A stretch of DNA of 64,000 bases from a bacterium (GCA_018675685.1 JABGXP010000014.1:81288-145287); one strand, 5' to 3'. Positions 4,978-42,638 are shown, numbered from the stretch's first letter. A program made the numbers and translations. Notes: generated from the sequence alone by a model not told the origin.

Positions 4978-6849
4978 ATGCTTAAAAAAGTTAAAAAAAG
5001 GAGAAAATCTGTGTCATCTGACTTGAAACAGAAAGTTCTACCAAGGTCCAGAGTGTATCTGGTTGTTTTTGCTATATTAATTTTTACGGGAATTATTGTT
5101 TTTCAATTGTATCGTCTACAAATCAAAGGCAATATTAAGTATACAAACCTAGCAAAAAAACAACACCAGGCAAGTAATAGAATTTTACCTTCAAGAGGCG
5201 AAATTTTTTTGTGTCAAAAAGAGGCAAAATTTTCATTAGCAGTTAACAAAGAACTTAAGACGGTTTTTGCTATGCCAAATGAGATTAAAGATCCAGTATT
5301 AACCGCGAGTATAATTGCCCCGATCTTAGACTTAGAAGAGACAGATGTTTTGAGAAAACTTTCAAAAAAAGGTGATTTATACGAAGTTTTAAGGCGTAAA
5401 ATTTCCAAAGAACTTTTCTTGAAGGTTGAAAAACTGAAATTGGAAGGGATTTATGGGGAAAGCGAATATTGGAGGTATTATCCAGGTAATTCGCTGGCAG
5501 CTCAAGTAGTTGGATTCGTTGGCTATAAAGAGGACAAACTATTTGGACAATATGGGATAGAGAGTAAATTAGAAGAAAGACTTAGTGGAAGAGAGGGTAT
5601 GATGGAACAAGAAAGGGATGTCTTTGGGAGGTGGATTTCAATTGGCTCCAAGTTAGTAACACCTGAGCGTGACGGACAAGATGTTGTTTTGACCTTGGAT
5701 CATGTTTTGCAGTTTAAGACAGAATCTGCACTTAAAAGTGCTATTAAAAGACACGATGCTGATAGTGGAAGAGTTATTATTACGAATCCAAGTACAGGCG
5801 AAATTTTAGCCATGGCTGCATACCCAACCTTTGATCCAAACGAATATTCAAAAGTTGAGGATATTAGTGTTTTTAAAAACTCTTTGATTTCAAATGAGTA
5901 TGAGTGTGGGTCTGTTTTTAAACCAATAACGATGGCTATTGGGCTAGACACAGAAAAAATTACACCAGAGACAACCTATATCGACAGAGGTTTTGTTGCA
6001 GAGGCTGGGTTTACTATTAATAATTCGGATAAAAAAGCATACCAAAAGCAAACAATGACACAGGTGATTGAGAAATCGCTAAATACAGGAGTTATCTTTG
6101 TTGAAAAAGAAATTGGAAATCAAGAATTTTATCGATATATAAAAGATTTTGGTTTCGGAGAAGTCACGGGTGTCTCCTTACCAGGAGAGGCTGACGGAAA
6201 CATCTCAAATTTAAAAAAGAATAGAGATATTGAATACTTCACTGCTTCTTTCGGGCAAGGAATTACTGTTACACCATTACAATTGGCAATGGCATACGGA
6301 GTGATGGCAAATGGAGGAGAGTTATTGAAGCCACAAATTATAAATAGTATTATTGATTTAAACGGAGCGGAAGAGAAATTTGAAACCAAGAAGGTTAAGT
6401 CTGTTATTTCTAAGAAAACATCTGAAGAGGTTTCTTTGATGCTAGAGAGTAATATTCTTAATGGACACGGGAAGTTAGCAGGAGTTCCAGGATACCGCAT
6501 CGCTGGTAAGACTGGAACAGCACAAATTCCTGATAAAGAGAACGGTGGATATTTAGAAGATGCAACCACTGGAACTTTCGCGGGATATGGACCTGTGGAA
6601 GATCCAATCTTTGCAATGGTTGTGATAATAGATTATCCTAAAGATGTGGAATGGGCAGAGAGTACAGCAGCCCCAGTTTTCGGAGAATTAGCGAAAGTAG
6701 TTCTTGATTATTATGGGGTAGAACCGACCGAGGAATATGATTTAAAGGATTTAGAAAAATTTGCAAAAACCCACAACTATCTTTTTAATAAAGAAGAAGA
6801 AATAAAAAATGAGTCATTAGAGACTGAAACAAGTAAGGATCAAGATTAA
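4978..6849 (+). CDS. ftsI: penicillin-binding protein, class B transpeptidase (FtsI/PBP2-like)
   Basis: N-terminal TM, then the SxxK (GSVFKP), SxN (KSLNTG) and KTG (AGKTGTAQ) motifs in the canonical order. Confidence 0.88.
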   Translation: MLKKVKKRRKSVSSDLKQKVLPRSRVYLVVFAILIFTGIIVFQLYRLQIKGNIKYTNLAKKQHQASNRILPSRGEIFLCQKEAKFSLAVNKELKTVFAMPNEIKDPVLTASIIAPILDLEETDVLRKLSKKGDLYEVLRRKISKELFLKVEKLKLEGIYGESEYWRYYPGNSLAAQVVGFVGYKEDKLFGQYGIESKLEERLSGREGMMEQERDVFGRWISIGSKLVTPERDGQDVVLTLDHVLQFKTESALKSAIKRHDADSGRVIITNPSTGEILAMAAYPTFDPNEYSKVEDISVFKNSLISNEYECGSVFKPITMAIGLDTEKITPETTYIDRGFVAEAGFTINNSDKKAYQKQTMTQVIEKSLNTGVIFVEKEIGNQEFYRYIKDFGFGEVTGVSLPGEADGNISNLKKNRDIEYFTASFGQGITVTPLQLAMAYGVMANGGELLKPQIINSIIDLNGAEEKFETKKVKSVISKKTSEEVSLMLESNILNGHGKLAGVPGYRIAGKTGTAQIPDKENGGYLEDATTGTFAGYGPVEDPIFAMVVIIDYPKDVEWAESTAAPVFGELAKVVLDYYGVEPTEEYDLKDLEKFAKTHNYLFNKEEEIKNESLETETSKDQD

Positions 6850-6873
6850 AGGCTAATTGATAAATTTCACCAT

Positions 6874-8199
6874 ATGAACAAGTCAAAGAAAGCAAGATTT
6901 TTAGAGAAAGTATTGCGTTTAATGGCAATTTGTGTTTTATGGCGACATAAACCAAAAGTTGTTGCAATTACGGGAAGTGTTGGGAAAACTACAACAAAAG
7001 ACATGACCTGGAAATTGTTGGAGAAGTATTTCAATGTCAGGAGGAATATTAAGAACTATAATAATGAAATTGGCGTTCCATTGACTATCATCGGCGTGGA
7101 GTCTGGGGAGAGCTCAATGATCAAATGGTTTTTTGTTTTCCTGAGTTGGGTGGGTGTTATGTTTTCTAGGAAATATCCAGAGATTTTGGTCTTGGAAATG
7201 GGTGCTGACAAGCCAGGTGATATCAAATACCTTACTAGTTTTGTGCCTATTGAGGTTGGAGTTATAACAAACATTGGGATTTCTCATCTTGAAAATTTTA
7301 AAACAAAAAAAGCGGTAGCTGTGGAAAAGGGGCATCTCCTAAGAAGTGTCCCTGTGAATGGACTGGCGATTTTAAATAGCGATGATGCTGAATGTCAAAA
7401 ACTAGCCCCACAGCTTAAAACCAACGTAATTAAGTGCGGTTTTGAGGAGGGGGCGTCAATGCTTGGAAGCGATATTATTTATGGTTATCGCTCATTGGAA
7501 ACCAGAAGTGGGAAAAAGATTAAGTTAGTTAAGGGGATTTTATTTAAATTAAACTATCAAGGTAAGATTATCCCAATTAAACTGAAGCACGCACTAGGTT
7601 ACCCTCAAGTTTATGCAGCACTCAATGCATTTGCTGTGGCAGAATACTTTAAACTGAATAAGCTTGAAGCCGCGGAAGCATTGCAGGATTTTCTTCCTCC
7701 ACCAGGAAGAATGGTTTTAATGCCAGGTATTAAAAATTCGGCAGTGATTGACGATACTTACAATAGTGCTCCGGAAAGTCTGAATGCTTGCCTTGTTACG
7801 CTTGATAAAATAAAAGCCGAAAGGAAAATTGTCGTCTTAGGTGATATGTTGGAGCTTGGAGAAGAAGAGGAGAGCGCTCATCGAGAGGCAGGAAAAAAAG
7901 TTGCCGAGTTACAACCAGAATTCTTCGTTGCTGTTGGAAAAAGAATGAAATATGCAGCGATAGAGTACAGGAAAAACACCCAAGATAAGGATTCAATAGG
8001 ATGCTTTAGCTCCCCCAACGAAGCAATGATTTTCATTCAGCATACGCTGAAAGAAGGAGATGTGGTTTTAGTGAAAGGATCACAGGGAATGAGAATGGAA
8101 AAAATTGTTGAAGAAATTATGAGGCAACCAGAAAAGAAAAAAGAATTGCTAGTTAGACAGGATGACACTTGGCAAACAAAGGATTTTATAGCGCCATAG
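6874..8199 (+). CDS. murF: UDP-N-acetylmuramoyl-tripeptide--D-alanyl-D-alanine ligase
   Basis: Mur ligase P-loop ITGSVGKTTTKDM and the DDTYNSAPES motif typical of MurF. Lies in the dcw context. Confidence 0.85.
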   Translation: MNKSKKARFLEKVLRLMAICVLWRHKPKVVAITGSVGKTTTKDMTWKLLEKYFNVRRNIKNYNNEIGVPLTIIGVESGESSMIKWFFVFLSWVGVMFSRKYPEILVLEMGADKPGDIKYLTSFVPIEVGVITNIGISHLENFKTKKAVAVEKGHLLRSVPVNGLAILNSDDAECQKLAPQLKTNVIKCGFEEGASMLGSDIIYGYRSLETRSGKKIKLVKGILFKLNYQGKIIPIKLKHALGYPQVYAALNAFAVAEYFKLNKLEAAEALQDFLPPPGRMVLMPGIKNSAVIDDTYNSAPESLNACLVTLDKIKAERKIVVLGDMLELGEEEESAHREAGKKVAELQPEFFVAVGKRMKYAAIEYRKNTQDKDSIGCFSSPNEAMIFIQHTLKEGDVVLVKGSQGMRMEKIVEEIMRQPEKKKELLVRQDDTWQTKDFIAP

Positions 8200-16945: not shown

Positions 16946-17224
16946 ATGGTAAAAGTTACAAAACAAAAAATAGGGGAAAGTGAAATAGTTTGTCATGACT
17001 GCGGCAAGACAATGGCGGAAGGTGACATGTGCGTGCCTTATGATGTGGCAAAAAAAACTTTCTACAAGTGCGATAAATGCTTTGTAAAAGATGATTCATT
17101 AAGAAATTATCAAGAGACAGAGGTTTATTCTAGGATCGTTGGTTATATTAGACCAGTGAAGCAATGGAATGTTGGGAAGACAGCAGAATACGCTGATAGA
17201 AAAGAGTATTGTGTAGAAGCTTAA
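16946..17224 (+). CDS. stand-alone NrdD C-terminal module: zinc ribbon plus glycyl-radical loop
   Basis: CHDCGK...CDKC followed by EVYSRIVGYIRPVKQWNVGKTAEYADRKEY, the canonical NrdD glycyl-radical segment. It is in the same frame as nrdD but separated from it by three in-frame stops. Confidence 0.75.
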   Translation: MVKVTKQKIGESEIVCHDCGKTMAEGDMCVPYDVAKKTFYKCDKCFVKDDSLRNYQETEVYSRIVGYIRPVKQWNVGKTAEYADRKEYCVEA

Positions 17225-17231
17225 GTTTGCT

Positions 17232-17265
17232 GAAGGTGTAACGAAAGTTGCACCTTCTTCTTTTT
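17232..17265 (+). terminator. rho-independent terminator after the nrdD module
   Basis: gaaggtg (17232-17238) / caccttc (17251-17257), followed by ttctttttt-like T-rich sequence. Confidence 0.6.
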
Positions 17266-17300
17266 ACCTAGAAAAAAGAAATTAAAAATTAAGAAGTAAA

Positions 17301-18368
17301 ATGAGAAAAAGAATCGAGAAGTTTAAGGAAACATTTCATGCCCAGTCCTTCATTGCTGGAATCGTCGCGATTGTTTTTTTAGCGGGACTGTTTGTTTTTG
17401 TTTCTAATTTTAGTTTGGGTTTTAACGCAGTTGGGATCTCTACAATGATCGGTGAAGATAAGGTTGCTAGTATAATGAAGGATTTAGTGGAAAATAATTT
17501 AACTAAGAAGGGAACAGATGTAGCTGTCGAGAATGTTGAGTTTATTAAGGAACTGGGATTGTATGAAGTTAAGATGAAGCTTGCTGGGAAGGCAGAAACT
17601 AGTGCTTTTTTAAGTAGGGACGGGAAATATTTTGTTAAAGAGGCTGCAAGTTTGGAAGAAATTAAGTCAAAACGTGAGGCTCAAGAAGAGGCTGCAGCTG
17701 GGGAAGCGGAAAGAAAAAGAGATATCAAGATTCCCAAAACCAAAAAACCTAATGTTGAAGTTTTTGTGATGAGTCACTGTCCATTTGGAACACAGGTGCA
17801 AAAAGGTTTTCTACCTGTTATCAAAAAACTCGGAAGTAAGGCGGATATAAATTTCAAGTTTGTGGATTATTTAATGCATGGAAAAAAAGAATTGACTGAA
17901 AATTTGAATCAATATTGCATTGAGCAAGAGGAAAATAAAAAATACTTGAAATACCTGGAATGTTTTTTGGGTAGCACAGGAGAGGCGAGTGATTCAACGA
18001 GTTGTATGAAGGAGTTCGGAATTTCTGAAAAGAAAATTGCAAGCTGCAGTACCAAAGTTGATGAGAAATTTCTCATAAGTAAGCAGTTCGCAGACAAAAC
18101 TACTTGGCAAGGAGGAAAATACCCGCTTTTTAATTTGCAAAAAGAAGAAAATGACAAATATAAAGTTGGGGGATCACCAACTATCGTGATTAACGGTGTT
18201 ACCGTTGAACCAAACCGAGATCCGAAGAGTCTTTTAAAAACGGTATGCTCAGCCTTTGAGGAGGCTCCAAAGGAGTGTGAAGAGGTCGTTCCCTCTCAAA
18301 CACCGTCTCCGGGATTTGGCATTGGGAAGGCCCCAACAGTTTCAAGTGATGGAGGTTGCGAAGAATAG
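17301..18368 (+). CDS. membrane-anchored secreted thioredoxin-fold protein (DsbA/GILT-like)
   Basis: N-terminal TM (FIAGIVAIVFLAGLFVFV). The segment VEVFVMSHCPFGTQ...INFKFVDYLMHG resembles the GILT/DsbA-type fold. It contains several conserved-looking Cys. The family assignment is tentative. Confidence 0.4.
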   Translation: MRKRIEKFKETFHAQSFIAGIVAIVFLAGLFVFVSNFSLGFNAVGISTMIGEDKVASIMKDLVENNLTKKGTDVAVENVEFIKELGLYEVKMKLAGKAETSAFLSRDGKYFVKEAASLEEIKSKREAQEEAAAGEAERKRDIKIPKTKKPNVEVFVMSHCPFGTQVQKGFLPVIKKLGSKADINFKFVDYLMHGKKELTENLNQYCIEQEENKKYLKYLECFLGSTGEASDSTSCMKEFGISEKKIASCSTKVDEKFLISKQFADKTTWQGGKYPLFNLQKEENDKYKVGGSPTIVINGVTVEPNRDPKSLLKTVCSAFEEAPKECEEVVPSQTPSPGFGIGKAPTVSSDGGCEE

Positions 18369-27950: not shown

Positions 27951-30650
27951 CTAAAGTGAGATCCTTAGAATATCACCATTTTTAGTGCTAATAAATGCTC
28001 GATCCTGTTTTTCATTGACCCAGAAGTGTTCAGCATCTATGAATTTTTCACTGAATTTTTTCACTGTCTCCGATTGATTGCTCTTTAAAATCTTCATAAG
28101 AACCCCGTTTTTTGAGTCCAAAGAATATATATTACTTGGTTGAGACCTAGTTTCGATATCGACAATTCTTGTCTCTTCATAATCATCATTTTTTGCAGAG
28201 AAAGAAGTTTTTAATTTTCCTTCAAAGTATTGTTGAATTTCTCCGTTTTCAGATGCCACCAAAAGTGAATCATCAACCGCTAAGTCAATTGCTGCTGAAA
28301 AGAATTGTTGGTTCGGTATCCTGATTTTATAATTATGAAAACCTCCTGGTTTGCGAGGAAATTGATAGATATTCTTTGAATTATTATCAAGAATATAAAG
28401 ATATTGGAGATAAACCCCAGCTCCTCCAATGGCAAGATTGTTAGGGAGTTTAATATCAACATCTGTAAAGCGATTTGTTACGGGGCTATAAGAAAAAACA
28501 CGCTTTTCTGAAATAAGGAAGACCAGTCTAAGGGTCGGCATAGATACAAGTGTTTTGGTTTCTTTCATATCATTCTTAAGAGGGACTTCTTTCAAATTAT
28601 TATTGGTGATGTCTAATCGGAAGAATTTTCCTGAAGCTGTGAGGATGAATAATTCGTCCTTATCTCCAGTTAAAGCTTTAATCTCCTCATTAACAGCTGC
28701 TATTGTTGTTGTTTCTGTCTCACTTTCGGAACCTCCTCTTTTTTGATCATTTATTATCTCGGTAGTTGAGGTTTCATTGAAAGCTTTATTTCCAATTAAT
28801 TTAGACAAAAATGAGAATAAGAAAATCAACGCCAAGAGAGAAATCGTGCCTATAAGAATTATTTTTTTGTATTTTCTTGTAAGCAAAACAAACTTTCTCT
28901 TGAGTCTCCCCAAATCTTTTTGTTTTGAGATTGCTATAACAGAGGTAATTGAACTCGTCATGGCATCTCGAAAAGAAGTTTTTATTTGTGTATCAGTTGG
29001 TTTTGTACTTTCGCTGGCAATGTTATTTCCCTTCCCGATTCTCTTCTCTCCAGAGACAAGAGAATTAATCTTAGCATGCATAGCTGTGTAGAGCTCCTTG
29101 ATTTTTTCTGTCAATTTAAGGAATATAGACTTTAGCTCATTCAGAATCCTTTGAAAATCAATTAAATCAAGTTTCTCTTTCACTTTTTTTAAATAGACGC
29201 CAATGGTTCTTCGAACACTCTTGGCTTGTTTTTCTTTAAATGTAGACTCTTCTTTTTTTCGTATCTCTCCATTTTTTACACGCATAAACTCTCTTTCTTT
29301 ACGAATCGTTTCTTTTTCTGCCTCCATTTTTTCTTGCTCCTCTAGTTCTTTCGATGGTTCAATGGGGTAGGATATGCTGTTATTGAAAGAGAGGTCTTTT
29401 ATGTTGTCATCTGATTTCCCAAGCTTAATTTTCGAAATTAAAGGGATTGAACTTGCTGAAATATTGTTATTTTTTTTCAAATCCTCAAGAGTTTTTTTGG
29501 CTTTATTTAAAATAGAATTAAAGCTCTTCTCATTGGTGTCGTCAATTTCCTTCATTTCAAGAACTTCTTTATTCCCATCAGCTTCTTTAATAAAAAGTTC
29601 CGGTTGCTCTTCAAACGGAGAAATAGGAGATGATCCCACAGTTTTGTTTTTTTGTTCCGTAGGCGCAGTTGGTTTGTTCGGAATATTCACTGCCCCTTTC
29701 TTTGCCTTTTTAGACAATTCTATTTCTCCGTCTCTTGTCTTTTTTGGTATTAATGAGGAGATTGGGGCCTCTGTCGTGATACTAACTTCTTTGTCTTTGG
29801 TATTTTTAGTCTCCTGTTCTATGTTTTTTAGTGAGCGGCATCTTTTGCCTAGAGAGGTCTTTGGAGTGAACGCTTCACTTTCTCCAAAAAAATTAAGCTT
29901 TGCGAGATCTTTTTCTTTTGGAGCCGAAGTCACGCTTTTCTCTTTGATGTTAGTGATAACAACCCCCACATCCTCTCCCTCTAAGTCCAAAGTTGATTTG
30001 AGAATATTATCAAATTCACTGGAAGTAAAGGTTTTTGTGTGGCGAGTGATTTCCTCCCAAGAAAGGGAGTCAAAAAGTTTCTTTGTTGAAAAAATAAGTT
30101 TATCTCCAATTGAGAGTTCACCATAAGAAATATCAGAAAATGTTTTCACAGGGTGCACGTTTTTTTCCTCATTTAACCCCTTTGATATTTCAGCAATTTT
30201 TTTATTCTTGGAGAGAAAAATTTGTCCATTCCCAAGCTTAGTAAAATGGAGTTCATTTCCGCTGATAACTCCAATAACAGCATCTAAATTATTGATCCAG
30301 TTTGTTATTTCATGTTGAGCAAGATCCTCTAATGCCAGGTTGATCTTATTAAGGGCACTTCCAAAACTTTCCTCTGTTCCCCTGTTTGGTTTTAAGAAGA
30401 ATTCTCGCTTAATCACCTGGGAAAGAAGATTCGGAAGATAGGCGGATCCTTCTGAGTTGTCATTACTTCTGATTATACCAAAAAGGTCTCCCAATTTACG
30501 TTGGGCTGGATTCTCTCCCTCAAAATGAAAAGTGTTTGAAAATGGTTGCAAAGCTTTATCTTTACAGACCGCCACCAAGAAGGAATCTAATTCAATTTCA
30601 ATTTTAGATTTTTTTTCTTTAATATTGTTGTGCATAGCAAAATATTTCAA
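27951..30650 (-). CDS. large membrane protein: N-terminal PP2C/SpoIIE-like domain, K/E-rich linker, one TM, C-terminal beta-propeller-like ectodomain
   Basis: The N-terminal roughly 240 aa follows a PP2C-like layout (GDLFGIIRS...; DAVIGVISGNELHFTKLGNGQIFL; LSIGDKLIFSTKKLFD; GEDVGVVITNI). The TM is IILIGTISLLALIFLFSFL. The C-terminal roughly 290 aa consists of repeated beta units. The start is either TTG 30650 or ATG 30635. Confidence 0.55.
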   Translation of the reverse strand: MKYFAMHNNIKEKKSKIEIELDSFLVAVCKDKALQPFSNTFHFEGENPAQRKLGDLFGIIRSNDNSEGSAYLPNLLSQVIKREFFLKPNRGTEESFGSALNKINLALEDLAQHEITNWINNLDAVIGVISGNELHFTKLGNGQIFLSKNKKIAEISKGLNEEKNVHPVKTFSDISYGELSIGDKLIFSTKKLFDSLSWEEITRHTKTFTSSEFDNILKSTLDLEGEDVGVVITNIKEKSVTSAPKEKDLAKLNFFGESEAFTPKTSLGKRCRSLKNIEQETKNTKDKEVSITTEAPISSLIPKKTRDGEIELSKKAKKGAVNIPNKPTAPTEQKNKTVGSSPISPFEEQPELFIKEADGNKEVLEMKEIDDTNEKSFNSILNKAKKTLEDLKKNNNISASSIPLISKIKLGKSDDNIKDLSFNNSISYPIEPSKELEEQEKMEAEKETIRKEREFMRVKNGEIRKKEESTFKEKQAKSVRRTIGVYLKKVKEKLDLIDFQRILNELKSIFLKLTEKIKELYTAMHAKINSLVSGEKRIGKGNNIASESTKPTDTQIKTSFRDAMTSSITSVIAISKQKDLGRLKRKFVLLTRKYKKIILIGTISLLALIFLFSFLSKLIGNKAFNETSTTEIINDQKRGGSESETETTTIAAVNEEIKALTGDKDELFILTASGKFFRLDITNNNLKEVPLKNDMKETKTLVSMPTLRLVFLISEKRVFSYSPVTNRFTDVDIKLPNNLAIGGAGVYLQYLYILDNNSKNIYQFPRKPGGFHNYKIRIPNQQFFSAAIDLAVDDSLLVASENGEIQQYFEGKLKTSFSAKNDDYEETRIVDIETRSQPSNIYSLDSKNGVLMKILKSNQSETVKKFSEKFIDAEHFWVNEKQDRAFISTKNGDILRISL

Positions 30651-31104: not shown

Positions 31105-31133
31105 TTTGACAAATATTTGGAGCTGTCATACAA
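31105..31133 (+). promoter_or_regulatory. promoter of the hrcA-grpE-dnaK operon
   Basis: TTGACA (31105-31110), 17-nt spacer, TACAAT (31128-31133). Confidence 0.6.
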
Positions 31134-31138
31134 TGATA

Positions 31139-31165
31139 TTAGCAGTCGATGGGGTAGAGTGCTAA
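31139..31165 (+). promoter_or_regulatory. CIRCE operator (HrcA binding site)
   Basis: TAAGCAGTC-N9-GAGTGCTAA compared with the consensus TTAGCACTC-N9-GAGTGCTAA. The right arm is perfect and the left arm has 2 mismatches. It lies immediately downstream of the -10. Confidence 0.7.
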
Positions 31166-31187: not shown

Positions 31188-31958
31188 ATGCTTTCAGACA
31201 GACAAGGAAAAATTCTAGCGTTAATCGTTCAAGAGTACACAAGATCGGCAGTCCCAGTCAGCAGCTCTTCTATTATGAAGGCTTTTAGAGAAAATATTTC
31301 TTCAGCAACAATTCGAAATGAAATGTTCGAACTTGAGAGAATAGGGTTTCTATTGAAACCACATGTTTCAGCAGGTAGAACACCATCAGACGCTGGATAT
31401 CGATACTTTATTGACAATCTTTTGAAAAATCGCAAACTCACACAAGATGATCAAAAGACGTTGCAAGTCGAGATGCTAAAGTTGAAAGCGCAAAATACGA
31501 GACTTTCAAGAACTCTTGCAAAAACACTCTCAACAACATCAAGATGCATGGCTTTGTCAGGAATGATTGAAAAAAAGGACTATTATGATTTTGGAATGCA
31601 CACATTGATGGATGATCCAGAATTCAACGAACTCGATGAAGTTTCGCGAATTGCTGCCTCACTTGACGTGATTGATGAGAAAATGGAGAAACTTCTAGAC
31701 CACCTAGAAGACGGAGAAATAAGAATATTCATCGGAGAAGAGAATCCAATTGAAGAGATTCGTAAATGTTCCATGATTATTTCACCATATCGACTGGAAA
31801 ACGGTGAACGAGGAGTCTTGGCGATTATTGGCCCTAAAAGGATGGAATATGGAAAGAACAAGAATTTAATTGATTTTGTAAGTGGATTCTTCAGTAATAA
31901 AAGCACAAAAGCTTTCTTCATAACAGCGACAACAGCGAATTTAGTTAACTTAATTTAG
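31188..31958 (+). CDS. hrcA: heat-inducible transcription repressor HrcA (short form, 256 aa)
   Basis: LSDRQGKILALIVQEYTRSAVPVSSSSI...SSATIRNEMFELERIGFLLKPHVSAGRTPSDAGYRYFID, the canonical HrcA winged-helix N-terminus. Confidence 0.88.
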   Translation: MLSDRQGKILALIVQEYTRSAVPVSSSSIMKAFRENISSATIRNEMFELERIGFLLKPHVSAGRTPSDAGYRYFIDNLLKNRKLTQDDQKTLQVEMLKLKAQNTRLSRTLAKTLSTTSRCMALSGMIEKKDYYDFGMHTLMDDPEFNELDEVSRIAASLDVIDEKMEKLLDHLEDGEIRIFIGEENPIEEIRKCSMIISPYRLENGERGVLAIIGPKRMEYGKNKNLIDFVSGFFSNKSTKAFFITATTANLVNLI

Positions 31959-32023: not shown

Positions 32024-32956
32024 ATGATGAACTTAGGGAGAAAAATTAAAAATAAGCAACAAACCGAAGATAAGATGAAAAAAGATAATTTTGATTTTGA
32101 AAACAGTAGTATACGACCGATGGCAATTACAGTGAAGATTGTAGTTTTAAACTCCGATCAGAAAGTTCTTCTCTTAAAAAGGAGCAAAAAGTCTTTGAAT
32201 CCGAAGAAATGGGACTTGCCGGGTGGGCATATCGACGAAGGAGAGTCTATAGAAGAAACAATCAAGAGAGAGGTCTTGGAAGAAACAGGGCTTTCTGTAG
32301 AGATTGGGCCAATCATCAACGTAGTTGAGTTTGCCAAGGATCACAAGGCATTTAAAGAGGAAAAAAGAGGTTTGCGATATATTGCACTAACAACTGATAC
32401 GGAAGTTGTACTAAACGAGGACGAGCATTCAGAATTCAAATGGCTTTCCTTTGATGAAGCAATTGCTAGCTTGGAAGACAAGGGGTTTGAAGGGGAGAAA
32501 AAACAAACCATCAAAGAAGCGAAAAATCGAATGGAACTCGAAAAATCATTAAATGGTTGGCACAGAACACTAGCCGAGTTTGATAATTTTAAAAAGAGAA
32601 CTGAAAAATCAAATGATGAATTCCGAAAATTTTGCCTCGAAAACTTTATCATGGAACTTTTACCAGTAATTGACAACTTTGAAATGGCAACGCAGCATAT
32701 TCCGACAGAACAACAGGAAGAGGGATGGGTTGTGGGCGTGATGCATATTAAAAATCAACTACTTGGAGTTTTGGAGGCTAATGGAGTGACAGAAGTTCCC
32801 ACCGCAAAAGGAGATGATGTAAATGAATCGATCCATGAGATACTGAAAGCTTCAGAAAAAAAAGATGGTGAAGGCGGAAAGGTTAAGAAGGTTTTGAAGA
32901 AGGGGTATCAAATCGAAAAGCGGATAATTCGACCAGCGACCATTGAAGTAGAATGA
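32024..32956 (+). CDS. grpE: Nudix hydrolase domain fused to nucleotide exchange factor GrpE
   Basis: Residues about 35-160 carry a full Nudix box, GGHIDEGESIEETIKREVLEETGL (GX5EX7REUXEEXGU). Residues about 175-310 are GrpE (HRTLAEFDNFKKRTEKS, LLPVIDNFEMA, GVMHIKNQL, KKGYQIEKRIIRPATIEV). Confidence 0.85.
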   Translation: MMNLGRKIKNKQQTEDKMKKDNFDFENSSIRPMAITVKIVVLNSDQKVLLLKRSKKSLNPKKWDLPGGHIDEGESIEETIKREVLEETGLSVEIGPIINVVEFAKDHKAFKEEKRGLRYIALTTDTEVVLNEDEHSEFKWLSFDEAIASLEDKGFEGEKKQTIKEAKNRMELEKSLNGWHRTLAEFDNFKKRTEKSNDEFRKFCLENFIMELLPVIDNFEMATQHIPTEQQEEGWVVGVMHIKNQLLGVLEANGVTEVPTAKGDDVNESIHEILKASEKKDGEGGKVKKVLKKGYQIEKRIIRPATIEVE

Positions 32957-33105: not shown

Positions 33106-35049
33106 ATGGGAAAAATCCTAGGAATCGATTTAGGAACAACCAACTCTGCGATGGCTATCGTGGAAGGCGGAACTCCTGAGATCGTAGAAAACAAAGAAGG
33201 GAACAGAACAACTCCTTCAGTAGTCGCGATTAATAAAGGTGGTGAAAGATTAGTAGGTCTTTTAGCAAAAAGGCAAGCTGTGACAAATCATGAGAATACA
33301 ATCTATTCAGCAAAACGTTTGATTGGGCGAAAGTTTTCAGATGCAGAGGTAAAGGAAACTGCTACAAAACTTCCTTTTAAAATTACTTCAGGTAAAAATG
33401 AAGCCGTTAATATCACAATGAACGGAAAAGCATACCGACCAGCTGAAATTTCAGCAATGGTTTTGCAGAAATTAAAAGCTGATGCAGAGGAAAAACTCGG
33501 AGAAAAAATCGAAGAAGCTGTGATTACAGTTCCTGCATATTTTGACGATGCTCAAAGAAAAGCGACAAAAGATGCTGGAGAAATTGCTGGGCTCAAGGTG
33601 ATGCGAATCATCAATGAACCAACAGCTGCAGCACTTGCGTATGGTTTTAACAAGAAAAAAGACGAAAAAATTGCTGTCTATGATCTTGGAGGAGGAACTT
33701 TCGATATTTCAATTTTGGAAGTTGCTGAAGACACTGTGGAAGTTAAAGCTACAAATGGTGATACTTATCTTGGTGGAGATGATTTTGATGAAAAAATCAT
33801 AACTTGGATTCTAGATGAATTCAAGAAAGCAGAAGGAATTGATCTTTCAAAAGATCCACTTGCTCTTCAGAGAATCAAAGAATCTGCTGAGAAAGCGAAA
33901 ATTGAACTTTCAACAGCACAAGAAAGTGAAATCAACCAACCATTTATCACTTCAGGTGATGATGGACCAAAACATCTTGTGATGAAAATTTCAAGAGCTA
34001 AATTGGAAGAACTAGTAGGAGATTTAGTAGACAAAACACTTGAACCAGTGAAAAAGGCATTGGCTGACGCAAAATTCAAAGCAGCTGATATCAATGAAAT
34101 TGTGATGGTTGGAGGAATGACAAGAATGCCATTGGTTTTGAAGAGAGTAGAAGAATTCTTTGGAAAGAAACCATCGACCAGTGTTAATCCAGATGAAGTT
34201 GTGGCAATGGGTGCTGCAATTCAGGGTGGAGTTCTTCAAGGCGATGTCAAAGATGTATTGTTACTTGATGTGACACCACTTACTCTTGGAATTGAAACAA
34301 TGGGTGGAGTTTTAACACCACTTATTGAACGAAATACTACAATTCCAACAACAAAGTCACAAATATTTTCAACTGCAGCTGATAATCAACCTGGTGTTGA
34401 AATTCATGTTTTGCAGGGTGAACGAAAAATGGCTGCAGACAGCAAACCACTTGGAAGATTTATGTTGGATGGAATTCCACCAGCACCAAGAGGAGTGCCA
34501 CAAGTTGAAGTTTCTTTCGACATCGATGCAAATGGAATCTTGAATGTAAAAGCAATTGACAAAGCAACAAATAAAGAGCAATCAATTCGTATTGAAGCTT
34601 CAAGCGGAATGTCTGAGGAAGAGATTGAGAAAATGAAAAAGGATGCTGAACTGCATGCTGAAGAAGACAAAAAGAAAGCTGAGGAAATTGAAATAAAGAA
34701 CACAGCTGATGCAATCGTTCATTCGACCGAAAAAACTTTTAAAGAGGTTGGAGACAAGATTTCTGATGACAAGAAAAAACCAGTTGAAGAAAAGCTTGAA
34801 GCCTTGAAAAAAATAAAAGATGGTGATGACTTTGAGGCAATCAAAAAAGCTTCTGAAGAGCTTTCAACTGAGGCTCAGAAAATTGGCGAAGAGATGTATA
34901 AAGCAGCTCAAGAAGCAGAAGCAGCTAAAGCAGCACCTGAAGGAGAAGAGAAAAAAGAAGAGGGTGATGTAAAAGAGGCTGAAGTTGAAGAAAAAGAAGA
35001 AGAAAAGAAGGAAGAGAAGAAAGACGAAAAAGAAGAAGAAAAGAAATAG
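33106..35049 (+). CDS. dnaK: molecular chaperone DnaK (Hsp70), with K/E-rich tail
   Basis: [27 protein letters not shown] and the other Hsp70 signatures. The tail is [20 protein letters not shown]. Confidence 0.97.
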
Positions 35050-35285: not shown

Positions 35286-35591
35286 ATGAACCAAAACCAA
35301 CAACCCCAAGCGGGTCAACAACAAATCCAGATCAAAGCCAATGATGAGGATTTGAAGGGGAAGTATTCAAACACAGTCCAGATGATGCACACTAAAGAGG
35401 AATTTGTTTTAGATTTTTTGAATATCTTCCCTCCAACAGGCACACTCAATTCACGTGTGATTGTTTCTCCTTCACATTTCAAAAGAATGACTGCTGCAAT
35501 GAGCGACAATTTGAAGAAATATGAAGAGAAGTTCGGAAAGATCAAGGACGTGAAAGGGGAGGAAAGTGGAAAAATGGGATTTGTGGGATAG
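35286..35591 (+). CDS. DUF3467-family protein
   Basis: GKYSNTVQMMHTKEEFVLDFLNIFPP ... RVIVSPSHFKRMTAAMSDNLKKYEEKFG matches my recollection of the DUF3467 pattern. Confidence 0.7.
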   Translation: MNQNQQPQAGQQQIQIKANDEDLKGKYSNTVQMMHTKEEFVLDFLNIFPPTGTLNSRVIVSPSHFKRMTAAMSDNLKKYEEKFGKIKDVKGEESGKMGFVG

Positions 35592-38066: not shown

Positions 38067-39329
38067 ATGAATACAGAAGTAATACTAGGGGGATTGCGAA
38101 GCAAAAAGAAAGGACACTGGTTTTTGATCAGTGCTGCCCTGGTTTTAATAATTGTTTTGGTTTTCAATTTTGGATCCAATGCAAAAGGTGAGGACAAAGA
38201 AGGAGACACAATAGATATATCGCAGAAAGTTGTCGCATATGTTGAGACGGTGACACTAGGTGAAGGATCTTCAGATGCAGCCAAGCTTGAAAGAACGGCT
38301 ATTTTTCGTTCCGCACAAGCTGGAAATGTTGTCGCTGAAAACACAGGAAGGATTAAACAAGTCAATTTTGAAATTGGTGATTTTGTAAGGCAGGGCCAGG
38401 TCCTAGCCGTATTTGATCAATCTAGCTTGAAAACAACAGCTGTAACGGCTCTATCTTCAGCAAGCGCTGGATTGGAAATTGCCTTGGATACTCAAAAAAA
38501 GACAGAAAAAGTTGCAAAAGAGAGCTTGGAGCTAACTAAAAACGCAAGAAAAATTGCTAAAATGCAATATGAAAATGCAAAAAATGATCCCACGGAAGAT
38601 GAGGACATTGCAAAGAGAGCGTATGAAAACGCAAAAGATCTAGAGGATCAAGCTGAGCAAAATGTTAAGATCCAAAAGAATCAAGCACAGTTACAAGTTA
38701 ACGGTGCTAAGCAGACAATGGATGGTGCAAGAGTTGTTTTTGAAAAAACTATTCTTAGAGCTCCAATTTCTGGGACAGTTGTTTCTAAGAATGTTGCAAT
38801 TAGTGATTATATTACAAGTGGTTCTCGAATCGCTGGAGTTGTTGGAGAAGGAAAACTGCAAACAGTCGTTTCCTTGAATGCTGATCAAATCTCCAGAATA
38901 AAAATTGGCGACGAAGTTGCTATTGCGATTGGAAAAAGCCAGCACAAGGGGAAAATTGTCTCCCTTTCAACGATTGCAAAAACAACAAATCAAAGGTTTG
39001 ATGTTAAGATTGAAACTTTAAAGGAAGTTATGACAAACGCGAACAAGACAGGCAAAGTTCTTTTTTCGTTAGCGCTAGAAGAGGAAGTAGTAGAGCCCTC
39101 TGAGCAGAAGATTTTCTTCGCTCCGATAAGTTCTGTGAATTTAGGACAAAGGAGATCTGTCGTGTTTATCTTAGAAGAAGGGAAAGCCATTGCCAGAGAA
39201 ATTGAAGTTGGCGAAATTGTTGGTGATAAAATTGAAATAACAAAAGGAGTTTCTTTTGGAGAGAAGTTGATTATTGTTAATTCAAGAAATCTTACAGATG
39301 GTCAAGCAGTCACCACCAAAAAGGATTAG
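38067..39329 (+). CDS. efflux RND transporter periplasmic adaptor (HlyD/MFP family)
   Basis: N-terminal TM, a lipoyl-like hairpin (G.V..V.F.IGDFVRQGQVLAVFD), a coiled-coil hairpin, ILRAPISGTVV, and C-terminal beta domains. Adjacent to an RND pump gene. Confidence 0.8.
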   Translation: MNTEVILGGLRSKKKGHWFLISAALVLIIVLVFNFGSNAKGEDKEGDTIDISQKVVAYVETVTLGEGSSDAAKLERTAIFRSAQAGNVVAENTGRIKQVNFEIGDFVRQGQVLAVFDQSSLKTTAVTALSSASAGLEIALDTQKKTEKVAKESLELTKNARKIAKMQYENAKNDPTEDEDIAKRAYENAKDLEDQAEQNVKIQKNQAQLQVNGAKQTMDGARVVFEKTILRAPISGTVVSKNVAISDYITSGSRIAGVVGEGKLQTVVSLNADQISRIKIGDEVAIAIGKSQHKGKIVSLSTIAKTTNQRFDVKIETLKEVMTNANKTGKVLFSLALEEEVVEPSEQKIFFAPISSVNLGQRRSVVFILEEGKAIAREIEVGEIVGDKIEITKGVSFGEKLIIVNSRNLTDGQAVTTKKD

Positions 39330-39380
39330 AAGATAAGGCTTGCAAAGAGCACAAATAAGAAATCGAAAAGAACTATTACA

Positions 39381-42300
39381 ATGAATAGCACAGAAAATTC
39401 TAGTGAAAACAAAGATTCTCGGGTGAAAAAATTGAAACTCAGAGAAAAAATCGTTCGAGAGTTGGAAGAATTTGAAAATTCTCCCTGGGTTTTTTTGATT
39501 AGGAAAAGCAAGCTTACAATCTTGATTATTATTGCATTATTAATCTTTGGGATAGCAACAATTAAAAACATGCCACGGGAACTGAACCCTGAGATAGAAA
39601 TTCCTTTTGCTATTGTTGTGACAGTTTTTCCGGGAGCGTCACCCTTGGATATTGAACAGCAAGTTACAAAAAAGATTGAGAGCGAAATAAGCGATCTAAA
39701 CGGAATCAAAAGAATTGACTCCTCGAGTTCTCTTGGATTTTCTTCTATTTTTGTTGAATTTGAGGCCGGCGAGGATATTGATAAATCAATCAAAGAACTT
39801 AAAGATAAGGTTGACAATGCCAAAACTGAGCTGCCAGAAGATGCTAGTGAACCAAAAACAGTTGAGGCTAAAATCGATGATCGGCCCGTAATGGAAGTGA
39901 CTCTTGTCTCAGAGGAATATGACGTCGCTGAGCTAAAACAGTTTGCCGAAAACTTAAAAGATGAGATAAAAGGAGTCCCTTTTGTGTCAGAGGTTAATAT
40001 TTCAGGAGGAAGAGATCGAGTGATCAAAGTTGATTTTGATCAAGATATTCTTGCAAAAAAAGGATTAACGGTGCAAGGAGTGCTAGGTGTCTTGAGTGCT
40101 AATAATGTTAATTTTCCTGCAGGTTCTATTGTGATTGAAAAATCAAGATATAATGTAAGAATCCAAGGAGAATTCAAGGATTCTTCCGAAGTAGGAATAT
40201 TTCCAATTGGTGCGAATAATGATGGAAGTTTGATTTATCTTGAAGATGTTGCGAAAGTAAAAGACGATTTTTCAAAAGAATTTTCCCGATCGAGATTTTC
40301 AATTGCTGGTGATGAGCCACTTGATGCAGTGTCAATTCAAATTTACAAAAAAACTGGGGGTGACGTGACAGCGCTAGCTAGTGAAGTTAGAGATCGAATC
40401 GAAAATGAGAAAGGTTCTGCATATCCAGAAAATGTAACAGTTGAGGTGACAAATGATTTTTCAAAGTTTGTGACTGATAGTATCAATACCTTGGTTGGTA
40501 ATGGTTTGGCAACTGTATTTTTAATCCTCTTGCTCTTATTGATTTTTCTAGGTTGGCAAGAAGCTTTTTTGGCTGGACCTGCTGTACCTTTTTCATTTTT
40601 CATTGCTTTTATCGTGATGGCAAGTGTTGGAGAGAGTTTGAACACTATTTCACTTTTTGCGCTTGTCTTATCCCTCGGTCTCTTGGTTGATAGTGCTATT
40701 GTAATTGTTGAGGGGATGCATAATAAGGTTGAAAAGTACAAATTAACAGGTTATCAAGCGGCTATTTCAACAGTAAGAGAATATGCAGCACCATTACTTG
40801 CAGGAATGCTAACAACAGTAGCAGCCTTTTTCCCGCTATTGTTTGTGAAAGGAATCTTCGGGTCCTTCATTAGAACAATTCCAATTGTTGTGATTTCGAC
40901 ACTTATCGCTGGGTTGTTTGTTTCCGTATCAATTATTCCAGCACTCGGCACATATCTTATTAAACCCGTTAGAAAGAAGAAAGAAGAACCTTGTGGCAGA
41001 AATTTTTTCACAAAAGTTTGCTTGAAAATGAAACAAATTTTTAAGGGAAAGCCACGAAAAGAGCGATTTTCTTCAAAAATGTTTGACTGGATCGCTAAGG
41101 TATACAGAAGGAATATTCCAAAAATTTTAACCAGTCGTAAAAGACGCATTCAAGTAATCGCTGGGATTTGGATATTTTTCTTTATTTCGATGGCATTGCC
41201 GGTGTTTGGTTTGATTAAAATGCAAGCTTTTGGTCAGGATGATTCTGATTTTTTCTACATCAACCTCGAAATGCCAAACGGAACTGTTTTGGAAAGAACG
41301 GATGAAATAACCAAGAAAATTGAGAATGAACTTCGGAAAGAATCTGAAATTGAGAATTTCGTTACTAACATAGGGAGCGCTATAGGTGGAGATGGCGCAA
41401 CTTCAGCTTCTGAAGGGGATAGCAACAAGGCTTTTATTCAAATTAATCTTATAGATAAAAAAGAACGTGAGACTTATAGTTTTGAGTTTGTTTCGGAGCT
41501 AAGAAAGAAACTCGAACCAATTGTCACCCAAGGGGACATTCGCTTTGTAGAGCTTGATTCAGGCCCCCCAGCAGGTAAGCCAATCGAACTTAGAGTAAGC
41601 GGTCCAGACCTTTTGATATTGGAGGAATTTGCTGAAAAAATTGCCGATGAATTGAAAAGCATTCCAACAACAATTGATGTGGAAACCTCTGTTAAACTTG
41701 CTGCAGGAGAGTTGGTTTTTACCCCAAACAAAGAAATCTTAGCTAAAAATGGAATTTCAGTGATTCAAATTGCTGGTGAGTTGAGGAGCAAGGTTGCTAG
41801 GAACGACGACATTGAGATTACCAGGGATGGTGATGAAGTGAAGATTGACACAGGAATTAATGACAAACAGTTATCAAGCACAGAAGACATCAAAGGGCTT
41901 TCTGTTTTAAATTCTAAGGGAGAGAAATTCTCAATCACTGAATTGGGCATGCTGACCTTTGAGCCTTCCCTTGCTACAATCAATAGGAGGGACAATGAAA
42001 GAATTGTCTTGATAACAGGGGATTCTGATGGAGGAAACACAACTGAAATCACTCAACAGCTTTTGGGTGAGATTGAAAAAATGTCATTGCCAAGTGGATA
42101 TACTGTTTCTTCTGGAGGTGAAGCGCAGGAGATGATGGAAGTTTATATCGATATGTTCTTGAAGATGATTTTGGGAATTGTGCTTATTCTGTTTATTCTT
42201 GTTTTGCAGTTCAATTCATATCGACAAACCATGATTATCATATTCACTATTCCGCTCGCAATGATCGGTGTGCTTTGGGGGATGACGATCTTTAGAATGA

Positions 42301-42638
42301 CATTGGATATCCCAGCTTTTATTGGAATTATTTCCTTGGCCGGGATTGTTGTTAATAACGCAATTATTCTTATTGATCAAATCAACCGTGAATTGAAGGA
42401 GGGAAGTGGATTGATTGATGCAGCTAAAAATGCAGGTTACATTCGTTTAAGGCCAATCTTCCTTACAACAATCACTACAATCATTGGTTTGTTACCACTT
42501 TCAATCACACAGCCAATTTGGAGAAATCTCGGTTTTGCGATTATTTTCGGACTGGCATTTTCAACGCTATTAACATTGATCATTGTACCAACAATGTTCG
42601 TGAGTCTTTATCGAAAAGAATATCCTCTTGAGAAGTAA
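39381..42638 (+). CDS. RND-family efflux permease (AcrB/HAE-like, 12 TM)
   Basis: 1085 aa with the duplicated architecture of 1 TM, large loop and 5 TM. Conserved segments include SLFALVLSLGLLVDSAIVIVE and ISLAGIVVNNAIILID. Confidence 0.9.
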   Translation: MNSTENSSENKDSRVKKLKLREKIVRELEEFENSPWVFLIRKSKLTILIIIALLIFGIATIKNMPRELNPEIEIPFAIVVTVFPGASPLDIEQQVTKKIESEISDLNGIKRIDSSSSLGFSSIFVEFEAGEDIDKSIKELKDKVDNAKTELPEDASEPKTVEAKIDDRPVMEVTLVSEEYDVAELKQFAENLKDEIKGVPFVSEVNISGGRDRVIKVDFDQDILAKKGLTVQGVLGVLSANNVNFPAGSIVIEKSRYNVRIQGEFKDSSEVGIFPIGANNDGSLIYLEDVAKVKDDFSKEFSRSRFSIAGDEPLDAVSIQIYKKTGGDVTALASEVRDRIENEKGSAYPENVTVEVTNDFSKFVTDSINTLVGNGLATVFLILLLLLIFLGWQEAFLAGPAVPFSFFIAFIVMASVGESLNTISLFALVLSLGLLVDSAIVIVEGMHNKVEKYKLTGYQAAISTVREYAAPLLAGMLTTVAAFFPLLFVKGIFGSFIRTIPIVVISTLIAGLFVSVSIIPALGTYLIKPVRKKKEEPCGRNFFTKVCLKMKQIFKGKPRKERFSSKMFDWIAKVYRRNIPKILTSRKRRIQVIAGIWIFFFISMALPVFGLIKMQAFGQDDSDFFYINLEMPNGTVLERTDEITKKIENELRKESEIENFVTNIGSAIGGDGATSASEGDSNKAFIQINLIDKKERETYSFEFVSELRKKLEPIVTQGDIRFVELDSGPPAGKPIELRVSGPDLLILEEFAEKIADELKSIPTTIDVETSVKLAAGELVFTPNKEILAKNGISVIQIAGELRSKVARNDDIEITRDGDEVKIDTGINDKQLSSTEDIKGLSVLNSKGEKFSITELGMLTFEPSLATINRRDNERIVLITGDSDGGNTTEITQQLLGEIEKMSLPSGYTVSSGGEAQEMMEVYIDMFLKMILGIVLILFILVLQFNSYRQTMIIIFTIPLAMIGVLWGMTIFRMTLDIPAFIGIISLAGIVVNNAIILIDQINRELKEGSGLIDAAKNAGYIRLRPIFLTTITTIIGLLPLSITQPIWRNLGFAIIFGLAFSTLLTLIIVPTMFVSLYRKEYPLEK

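Follow-up and report, generated by a model that had tools for sequence, protein, structure and literature searches.

In a 64,000-nucleotide stretch of bacterial DNA (GCA_018675685.1 JABGXP010000014.1:81288-145287, which we will call the window), one gene encodes both a Nudix hydrolase domain and GrpE, the nucleotide-exchange factor of the chaperone DnaK. We propose that its product is a bifunctional protein, regulated by heat shock, that combines GrpE with an active Nudix pyrophosphohydrolase, probably one that acts on a stress nucleotide. We put the probability of this proposal at about one half.

The fusion gene lies at 32024..32956 on the + strand. It begins with ATG and, as the initial annotation of this DNA had stated, encodes 310 amino acids (aa) in an unbroken frame, followed by the stop codon. 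That annotation had also recognized the N-terminal part as Nudix, and profile searches agree: aa 35-153 match the Nudix profile of Pfam (PF00293) with 89.4 bits, where the cut-off is 21.1 (E = 2.6e-25). The GrpE profile (PF01025) scores 125.3 bits over aa 158-309 (cut-off, 25.8; E = 2.5e-36), and the match is nearly complete (profile positions 15-163 of 165). Both of these matches are far beyond chance. Among proteins of known structure, the GrpE part is similar in sequence to the GrpEs in PDB entries 4ANI (E = 1.4e-15), 1DKG (4.6e-13), and 3A6M (2.3e-12). The GrpE equivalog models of NCBIfam all score below their own, much higher, cut-offs, as expected for a divergent lineage. The motifs quoted in the annotation are all present: GGHIDEGESIEETIKREVLEETGL at aa 67-90, AEFDNFKKRTEKS at aa 184-196, LLPVIDNFEMA at aa 212-222, and KKGYQIEKRIIRPATIEV at aa 292-309.

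The combination of Nudix and GrpE recurs. Among 5.8 billion proteins searched, about 98 clusters (at 90% identity) have both PF01025 and PF00293. These proteins are 275-315 aa long and are 41-100% identical. Those clusters that have a name go by "nucleotide exchange factor GrpE" and come from metagenome-assembled genomes of Candidatus Moranbacteria, Moraniibacteriota, or Patescibacteria. With HMMER, a single alignment covers both domains in at least 57 of the best 150 among 1.84 billion cluster representatives (at 50% identity). The fusion is carried by 23 species-representative genomes, almost all of them labelled Moranbacteria or Patescibacteria. The Moranbacteria are very small bacteria that have not been cultivated. 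Since the same frame is found in at least 148 distinct proteins as well as in these 23 genomes, the annotation was right to treat this as a single gene and not as two that had been merged.

No second grpE from a fusion-carrying assembly was found among the best 80 loci, and the window has no second GrpE match. Judged indirectly, from these loci, the organism most likely has no housekeeping grpE other than the fusion. (A Moranbacteria-type hrcA-(Nudix-)grpE-dnaK operon is also found on the contigs that we number L006, L007, L010, L011, L021, L024, and L025, although their titles name Bdellovibrionales, Candidatus Fimivivens, Bathyarchaeia archaeon, or Micavibrio; these metagenome-assembled genomes have probably been mislabelled or mis-binned.)

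The Nudix domain (aa 34-153; 32123..32482, + strand), which we will term type A, was described initially as having a complete Nudix box with every catalytic glutamate in place. Indeed, GGHIDEGESIEETIKREVLEETGL (32222..32293, + strand) fits the pattern GX5EX7REUXEEXGU exactly, and all of the catalytic glutamate and arginine positions are kept. Across 55 fusion proteins, with identities down to 32%, G68, E83, and E87 are invariant, and conservation is 90% or more at E74, R82, E86, G89, and L90. In the larger set of 148 fusion proteins, 114 have the strict box and 128 have the catalytic core. The Nudix domain is about as conserved as the rest of the protein, with a mean pairwise identity of 0.51, versus 0.46-0.54 for the GrpE parts. 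Compared to the homolog from locus L001, the nonsynonymous divergence (dN) of the Nudix domain is 0.13 and the synonymous divergence (dS) is saturated. Both the Nudix and the GrpE halves are under purifying selection. From the conservation of its active site, we infer that the Nudix half is a catalytically competent pyrophosphohydrolase.

The fusion gene appears, from its genomic context, to belong to a classical heat-shock operon under the control of the repressor HrcA. The annotation had placed it inside an hrcA-grpE-dnaK operon, and both flanking genes are confirmed by Pfam: hrcA (31188..31958, + strand) encodes a heat-shock repressor of 256 aa (HrcA C-terminal domain, E = 5.5e-24), and dnaK (33106..35049, + strand) encodes the partner Hsp70 of 647 aa (HSP70, E = 8.7e-256, full profile). 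Just before hrcA there is a CIRCE operator (controlling inverted repeat of chaperone expression), TTAGCAGTC-N9-GAGTGCTAA (31139..31165, + strand), which is a predicted HrcA site with one mismatch to the consensus. It is the sole match within the window, where 0.02 matches would be expected by chance. A sigma-70-like promoter, TTGACA-17-TACAAT (31106..31134, + strand), which is identified by its match to the consensus only (11/12), lies directly before CIRCE and hrcA, and this placement fits an operon promoter. We assign the fusion gene to the HrcA-controlled operon because of the promoter and CIRCE before hrcA and because we found no terminator-like sites on the + strand between hrcA, grpE, and dnaK. 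Similarly, 30 of the 31 related loci that we examined have a CIRCE 5' of hrcA, and the gene order hrcA-fusion-dnaK holds in all 23 fusion loci from species-representative genomes.

We noticed that the 9-nucleotide spacer of CIRCE often holds CTTGAC in the Moranbacteria loci (L004-L030; for instance, L004:5019-5045), which means that a -35-like TTGAC hexamer sits within the operator. At some loci, CIRCE also occurs a second time in another place, such as at L008:2636, just 5' of dnaK.

To describe how the two halves are joined, we use a monomer model that was built with AlphaFold2 from 55 family members (mean predicted local distance difference test score, or pLDDT, of 86). In this model, a tail (aa 1-33) is followed by an alpha/beta/alpha sandwich with the Nudix fold (aa 34-149), a five-residue turn, and one continuous helix (aa 155-224) that forms both the stalk and the first helix of the bundle. 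A second bundle helix (aa 234-252) and a beta domain (aa 255-309) complete the architecture of GrpE, with its stalk helix, four-helix bundle, and C-terminal beta-sheet domain. On the + strand of the window, the disordered tail corresponds to 32024..32122; it has pLDDT below 50 at aa 15-31 and is fast-evolving. The full-length stalk helix (aa 155-204) is encoded by 32486..32635, and it is supported by the model and by alignments to 1DKG, 3A6M, and 4ANI. The four-helix-bundle region (aa 205-252; 32636..32779) includes LLPVIDNF and G238, which corresponds to G122 of E. coli GrpE. The C-terminal beta-sheet domain (aa 253-310; 32780..32953) is supported by Pfam, by the PDB alignments, and by the model. 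In known complexes, this beta domain is the main contact to the nucleotide-binding domain of DnaK (PMC10803776).

The initial annotation went on to suggest that the Nudix domain stands in place of the thermosensor helix of GrpE and that the paired-helix region is correspondingly short. Neither suggestion holds up. There are 35 residues from the conserved glycine of the G-W/I-x-R turn (G-W-H-R here) to LLPVID, which is the same as in E. coli GrpE. The stalk helix begins 23 residues before this glycine in the fusion protein and, we presume from 1DKG, about 21 residues before it in E. coli. Because both the spacing and the start of the helix match those of E. coli GrpE, the stalk is neither shortened nor replaced. 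Instead, the model indicates that the Nudix domain displaces or extends the disordered N-terminal tail of GrpE. What remains of the tail, ahead of the Nudix domain, varies in length among the relatives and is missing from one of them (P0054). The ratio dN/dS is about 0.6-0.8 for the tail and is much lower for the rest of the protein.

The Nudix domain is linked to the stalk by the motif GFEGEKK (aa 154-160; 32483..32503, + strand; pLDDT 90-95), whose consensus in the family is DGFExEK. In the type-A fusions, conservation reaches 90% or more at G154, E156, E158, and K159. That this junction is both conserved and confidently modelled suggests that the geometry between the enzyme and the stalk is fixed.

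Structures of GrpE-DnaK complexes suggest where the Nudix domain would be. In the structure from M. tuberculosis, the stalk helices touch subdomains IA and IIA of the nucleotide-binding domain, as well as the substrate-binding domain (PMC10803776). The N-terminal end of the stalk is near the substrate-binding domain of DnaK, not the nucleotide cleft (PMC10803776, PMC12915176). In both E. coli and M. tuberculosis, the N-terminal tail of GrpE promotes the release of substrate at the substrate-binding site of DnaK (PMC12915176, PMC10803776), and in E. coli, the IIM motif of the tail binds that site (PMC12915176).

We propose that the GrpE half (aa 155-310), which is complete, acts on the organism's DnaK as its nucleotide-exchange factor and is expressed from the HrcA/CIRCE operon. 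The Nudix half would be grafted to the N-terminal end of its stalk by way of the conserved junction. Since GrpE is a dimer, two Nudix domains would be paired at the stalk's tip. By homology to these complexes, they would lie beside the substrate-binding domain when DnaK is bound and well away from the nucleotide cleft, because the N-terminal end of the stalk sits there while the beta domain opens the cleft at the opposite end. About 50 helical residues, or roughly 70 Å, would separate them from the four-helix bundle, so the Nudix domain is probably not acting on the ADP that GrpE expels. More plausible substrates would be stress nucleotides, such as a dinucleoside polyphosphate of the diadenosine tetraphosphate (Ap4A) type, a damaged nucleoside triphosphate, or a similar derivative of a nucleoside diphosphate (NDP-X). 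The fusion would give the Nudix enzyme co-regulation with the heat-shock response, the same stoichiometry as the chaperone, and proximity to DnaK.

In the Moranbacteria, comparison of the sequences shows a hot spot for fusions at the N-terminal end of GrpE. Besides type A (in the window and in L001-L014), we distinguish two other subtypes of Nudix domain at this position: type B (L019 and L022) and type C (L015, L016, L018, L020, L021, and L041). Identity is 43-76% within a subtype but only about 25-40% between subtypes over most of the domain, and it is higher only in short local alignments. Some proteins have two Nudix domains in tandem before GrpE, in the order C-A (P0052, P0048, P0044, and P0056), A-B (P0171 and L017, at 5791-7344), or A-A' (P0013); these tandem proteins have 445-453 aa. 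These tandem proteins, like the nucleotidyltransferase forms described below, have the GrpE, the operon, and the point of insertion (the stalk's N-terminal end) in common with the protein from the window.

The fusion proteins at L012:5920-6846 and L022:3302-4210 have identical leader peptides, and their GrpE domains are about 95% identical by eye, yet L012 has a type A Nudix domain and L022 has a type B domain (about 33% identical to each other). Their relative L017 has both: its type A domain is 76% identical to that of L012 and its type B domain is 73% identical to that of L022. Because L012 and L022 share GrpE but not the type of Nudix domain, while L017 has both types, these sequences suggest differential loss from a tandem ancestor.

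In three other proteins (L023:5521-6462, L033:3156-4148, and P0215), a different domain of about 160 aa replaces Nudix at the same position. Stand-alone homologues of this domain have no significant match in Pfam, in NCBIfam, or to the sequences in PDB. A model of one stand-alone homologue (P0121, pLDDT 92) matches nucleotidyltransferases with the Pol-beta fold (TM1012, LnuA, ANT(2'')-Ia, and MenT1), and the motif G-S-x-G...D-x-D is invariant in this predicted nucleotidyltransferase domain. Stand-alone copies (L083-L085) are found amid genes for nucleotide salvage, with adenylosuccinate lyase, dCMP (deoxycytidine monophosphate) deaminase, and HD-phosphohydrolase genes around them. In other Moranbacteria, GrpE is plain (167-206 aa) and its tail is charged. 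A neighbour-joining tree of the 150-aa GrpE domain intermixes the Nudix types with the plain GrpEs and is too poorly resolved for counting gains or losses. That this one position has been taken by nucleotide enzymes of several kinds, including three subtypes of Nudix, tandem pairs, and a nucleotidyltransferase, favors our proposal of a bifunctional protein.

Several observations weigh against the proposal, and most of them concern the substrate. First, the Nudix domain appears, from its sequence, to belong to none of the subfamilies that we considered (MutT, RppH, NudB, Ap4A hydrolase, ADP-ribose pyrophosphatase, NudC, and coenzyme A (CoA) pyrophosphatase). The Nudix equivalogs of NCBIfam are all far below their cut-offs, the best being NudB (50.4 bits vs 103), with MutT at 40 vs 97.9 and RppH at 39 vs 116. 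Second, in the scheme attributed to Dunn et al. 1999, a tyrosine about 16-18 residues past the box reportedly indicates an Ap4A hydrolase, and a proline about 16 residues past it reportedly indicates an ADP-ribose pyrophosphatase. Neither marker is present 15-18 residues past the box (positions +12 to +20 are EFAKDHKAF). Third, the structural neighbours, by PDB sequence and by fold, cover many specificities and so make a weak structural argument; the nearest solved structure, 3GRN, is uncharacterised. Finally, the box is degenerate in roughly 6-10 divergent fusions (such as P0194, P0205, P0207, P0219, P0248, and P0293), and P0014, P0017, and P0018, which form a close subclade, have histidine or glutamine in place of the first glutamate of the EE pair. 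The Nudix domain can thus persist without its full catalytic machinery, which hints at a structural or regulatory role as well. We also considered a resemblance to the upstream motif of CoA pyrophosphatases, LLTxR[SA]...GxxxFPGG. We dropped it, as G-x-W-x-x-PGG is common in Nudix proteins, including 3GRN.

As to which stress nucleotide might be hydrolyzed, the dinucleoside polyphosphates (ApnA) are an attractive hypothesis, given the cross-linking of Ap4A to DnaK, GroEL, and ClpB and the heat sensitivity of apaH mutants (PMC7705103, PMC10148737). The binding of Ap4A to these chaperones has been known since 1991, without a clear mechanism (PMC7705103, PMC10148737).

We considered several alternatives to a bifunctional protein. 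One possibility, which we consider less likely, is that the Nudix domain is mainly a regulatory or structural cap. It would take the place of the pseudo-substrate tail as a steric or ligand-sensing module and would tune GrpE, with hydrolysis being secondary or serving as a timer. The cap might clamp the N-terminal ends of the paired stalk helices and so alter the thermosensor, or it might gate access to the substrate-binding domain of DnaK in response to a nucleotide. The Nudix domain is placed exactly where the functional N-terminal tail emerges (PMC12915176, PMC10803776), which fits this explanation. So does what remains of the tail, which is unconserved and sometimes missing, and so does the minority of fusions that keep the domain despite a degenerate box. 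The swapping of Nudix subtypes between near-identical GrpEs (L012 and L022) is also consistent with a cap, and the conserved, confidently modelled junction suggests rigid coupling to the stalk, although only type A has this motif at the junction, which differs in types B and C. However, a pure binding module would have no need for the catalytic glutamates and arginine, which are strictly retained in most lineages across deep divergence. Nudix-related regulators of the NrtR type, for comparison, lose the Nudix box.

Another explanation, which we consider rather doubtful, is that the fusion is a "Rosetta stone" that reflects co-expression and nothing else. A housekeeping Nudix enzyme, similar to MutT or RppH, would have been fused to grpE in a streamlined genome, and what was selected would be the shared regulation. 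These genomes are small (P0043 is on a contig of 1.13 Mb), the Nudix subtypes are freely swapped or lost, and no subfamily signature links the Nudix domain to a chaperone. On the other hand, co-expression does not account for the recurrence of fusions at one site, with three types of Nudix, tandem pairs, and a nucleotidyltransferase. Furthermore, a Nudix gene that adjoins grpE is always fused to it (of the two apparent splits, described below, one is due to an in-frame stop and the other to an assembly gap), and the junction is conserved in type A.

A more ambitious idea, which we regard as speculative and on balance unlikely, is that the tip of the stalk is a docking platform that holds nucleotide enzymes by the substrate-binding domain of DnaK and thereby couples the Hsp70 cycle to stress nucleotides, with the enzyme domain also taking over the substrate release of the lost tail. 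The docked enzymes might clear alarmones of the Ap4A type from DnaK, or they might remove or add nucleotide-derived modifications on DnaK or its clients.

It seems improbable that the Nudix domain is coupled directly to the DnaK cycle, which was the main idea of the initial annotation, by hydrolyzing the released ADP or a derivative so as to make exchange irreversible or to shift the local ratio of ADP to ATP. An enzyme tethered to an exchange factor does bring this to mind: Nudix chemistry suits derivatives of nucleoside diphosphates, and the nucleotidyltransferase at the same position in some relatives suggests a nucleotide theme. But the Nudix domain is at the far end of a stalk helix of about 50 residues, while it is the beta domain, at the opposite end, that opens the cleft, and released ADP diffuses freely. 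Plain ADP is also an uncommon substrate for Nudix enzymes. Moreover, three Nudix subtypes substitute for each other, and this speaks against an active site whose position is finely set.

The last alternative, that a missed stop, a frameshift, or a chimeric assembly has made two adjacent genes, nudix and grpE, look like one, is effectively refuted by the recurrence of the unbroken frame in many independent assemblies from independent projects, with both halves under purifying selection in one frame and no conserved internal start, in spite of one locus with an in-frame stop and a few database entries that are truncated or frameshifted.

We also looked at individual candidates for intermediates or for separate genes. 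An internal start that would give a separate GrpE was rejected, as M170 is not conserved. At L081:977-1861 (P0097), what appeared to be a stand-alone Nudix gene, and thus an intermediate, is the frame of a fusion with one in-frame TAA. This TAA is inside the stalk (…KKRSVKEN*DFKRY…), and gene callers give a 178-aa "Nudix" and a 109-aa "GrpE"; the next gene is hsp20. The TAA could be a nonsense variant, a sign of a pseudogene, or a sequencing error. The apparent split in L041 is an assembly gap of Ns, and the C-terminal ends of P0179, P0278, and P0209 suggest truncation or a frameshift.

How does the fusion protein compare to known systems? Canonical GrpEs (1DKG from E. coli, 4ANI from G. kaustophilus, 3A6M from T. 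thermophilus, and the cryo-electron microscopy structure from M. tuberculosis) have the same order of stalk, bundle, and beta domain, with the same spacing. They share with the fusion the motifs A-x-F-x-N-x-K-K-R, LPV-x-DNF, and KGY...IRPA, as well as the equivalent of G238, and canonical grpE has the same place between hrcA and dnaK and the same control by CIRCE. The difference is at the N-terminus: where a canonical GrpE has a disordered tail of about 30-40 residues, the fusion has a folded enzyme domain of 120 residues, and its leftover tail is unconserved.

We compared the Nudix half with small single-domain Nudix hydrolases, namely the MutT-related protein of M. mazei (3GRN), the diadenosine hexaphosphate (Ap6A) hydrolase Ndx1 of T. 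thermophilus (1VC8), Rv2985 of M. tuberculosis (9CXX), CT771 of C. trachomatis, and human NUDT15 and NUDT6. Unlike these, it is fused at its C-terminal end to a coiled-coil protein and is below the cut-off of every curated equivalog model. It also has conserved residues that are specific to its clade (K38, R53, W63-D64, E102, R118, E134-H135, and W140).

Both domains are from textbook families, and the sequences are already public under the name GrpE. We found no description of a fusion of Nudix or of a nucleotidyltransferase to GrpE in the full-text literature, whose coverage excludes most subscription journals. A review from 2025 on exchange factors similar to GrpE nowhere uses the words "fusion," "fused," "Nudix," or "additional domain." It is an unusual architecture: in an order-level lineage within the Candidate Phyla Radiation, what is apparently the only GrpE has an enzyme attached. 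The current label of "nucleotide exchange factor GrpE" alone hides the second domain in annotations. If the Nudix domain acts on alarmones or damaged nucleotides, then it would be a natural and easily assayed link from such nucleotides to the Hsp70 machine. These fusions are also a natural experiment on the tail of GrpE, with a folded domain in place of what was recently shown to drive substrate release. The observation is solid, and both it and the proposed mechanism lend themselves to direct tests with recombinant protein.

Other features of the window are less closely tied to the fusion. Scans of the window with Rfam and for tRNAs gave no matches. Divergent from the hrcA promoter region, at 27951-30650 on the - strand, is an open reading frame of 899 aa with no Pfam match; it appears to have a hydrophobic segment at its center and a middle region of low complexity that is rich in lysine and glutamate. 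Immediately 3' of dnaK is a gene of the DUF3467 family (35286-35591, + strand; E = 9.8e-24). In locus L082, a DUF3467 gene (17197-17520), about 4 kb 3' of dnaK, overlaps the end of a gene with a RelA_SpoT domain, and a separate, stand-alone Nudix protein of 132 aa is encoded near these two genes. Finally, at 38067-42638 (+ strand), the window encodes a membrane-fusion protein of the HlyD type and a 1085-aa transporter of the AcrB family (resistance-nodulation-division, or RND), in what is otherwise a Patescibacteria-like genome.

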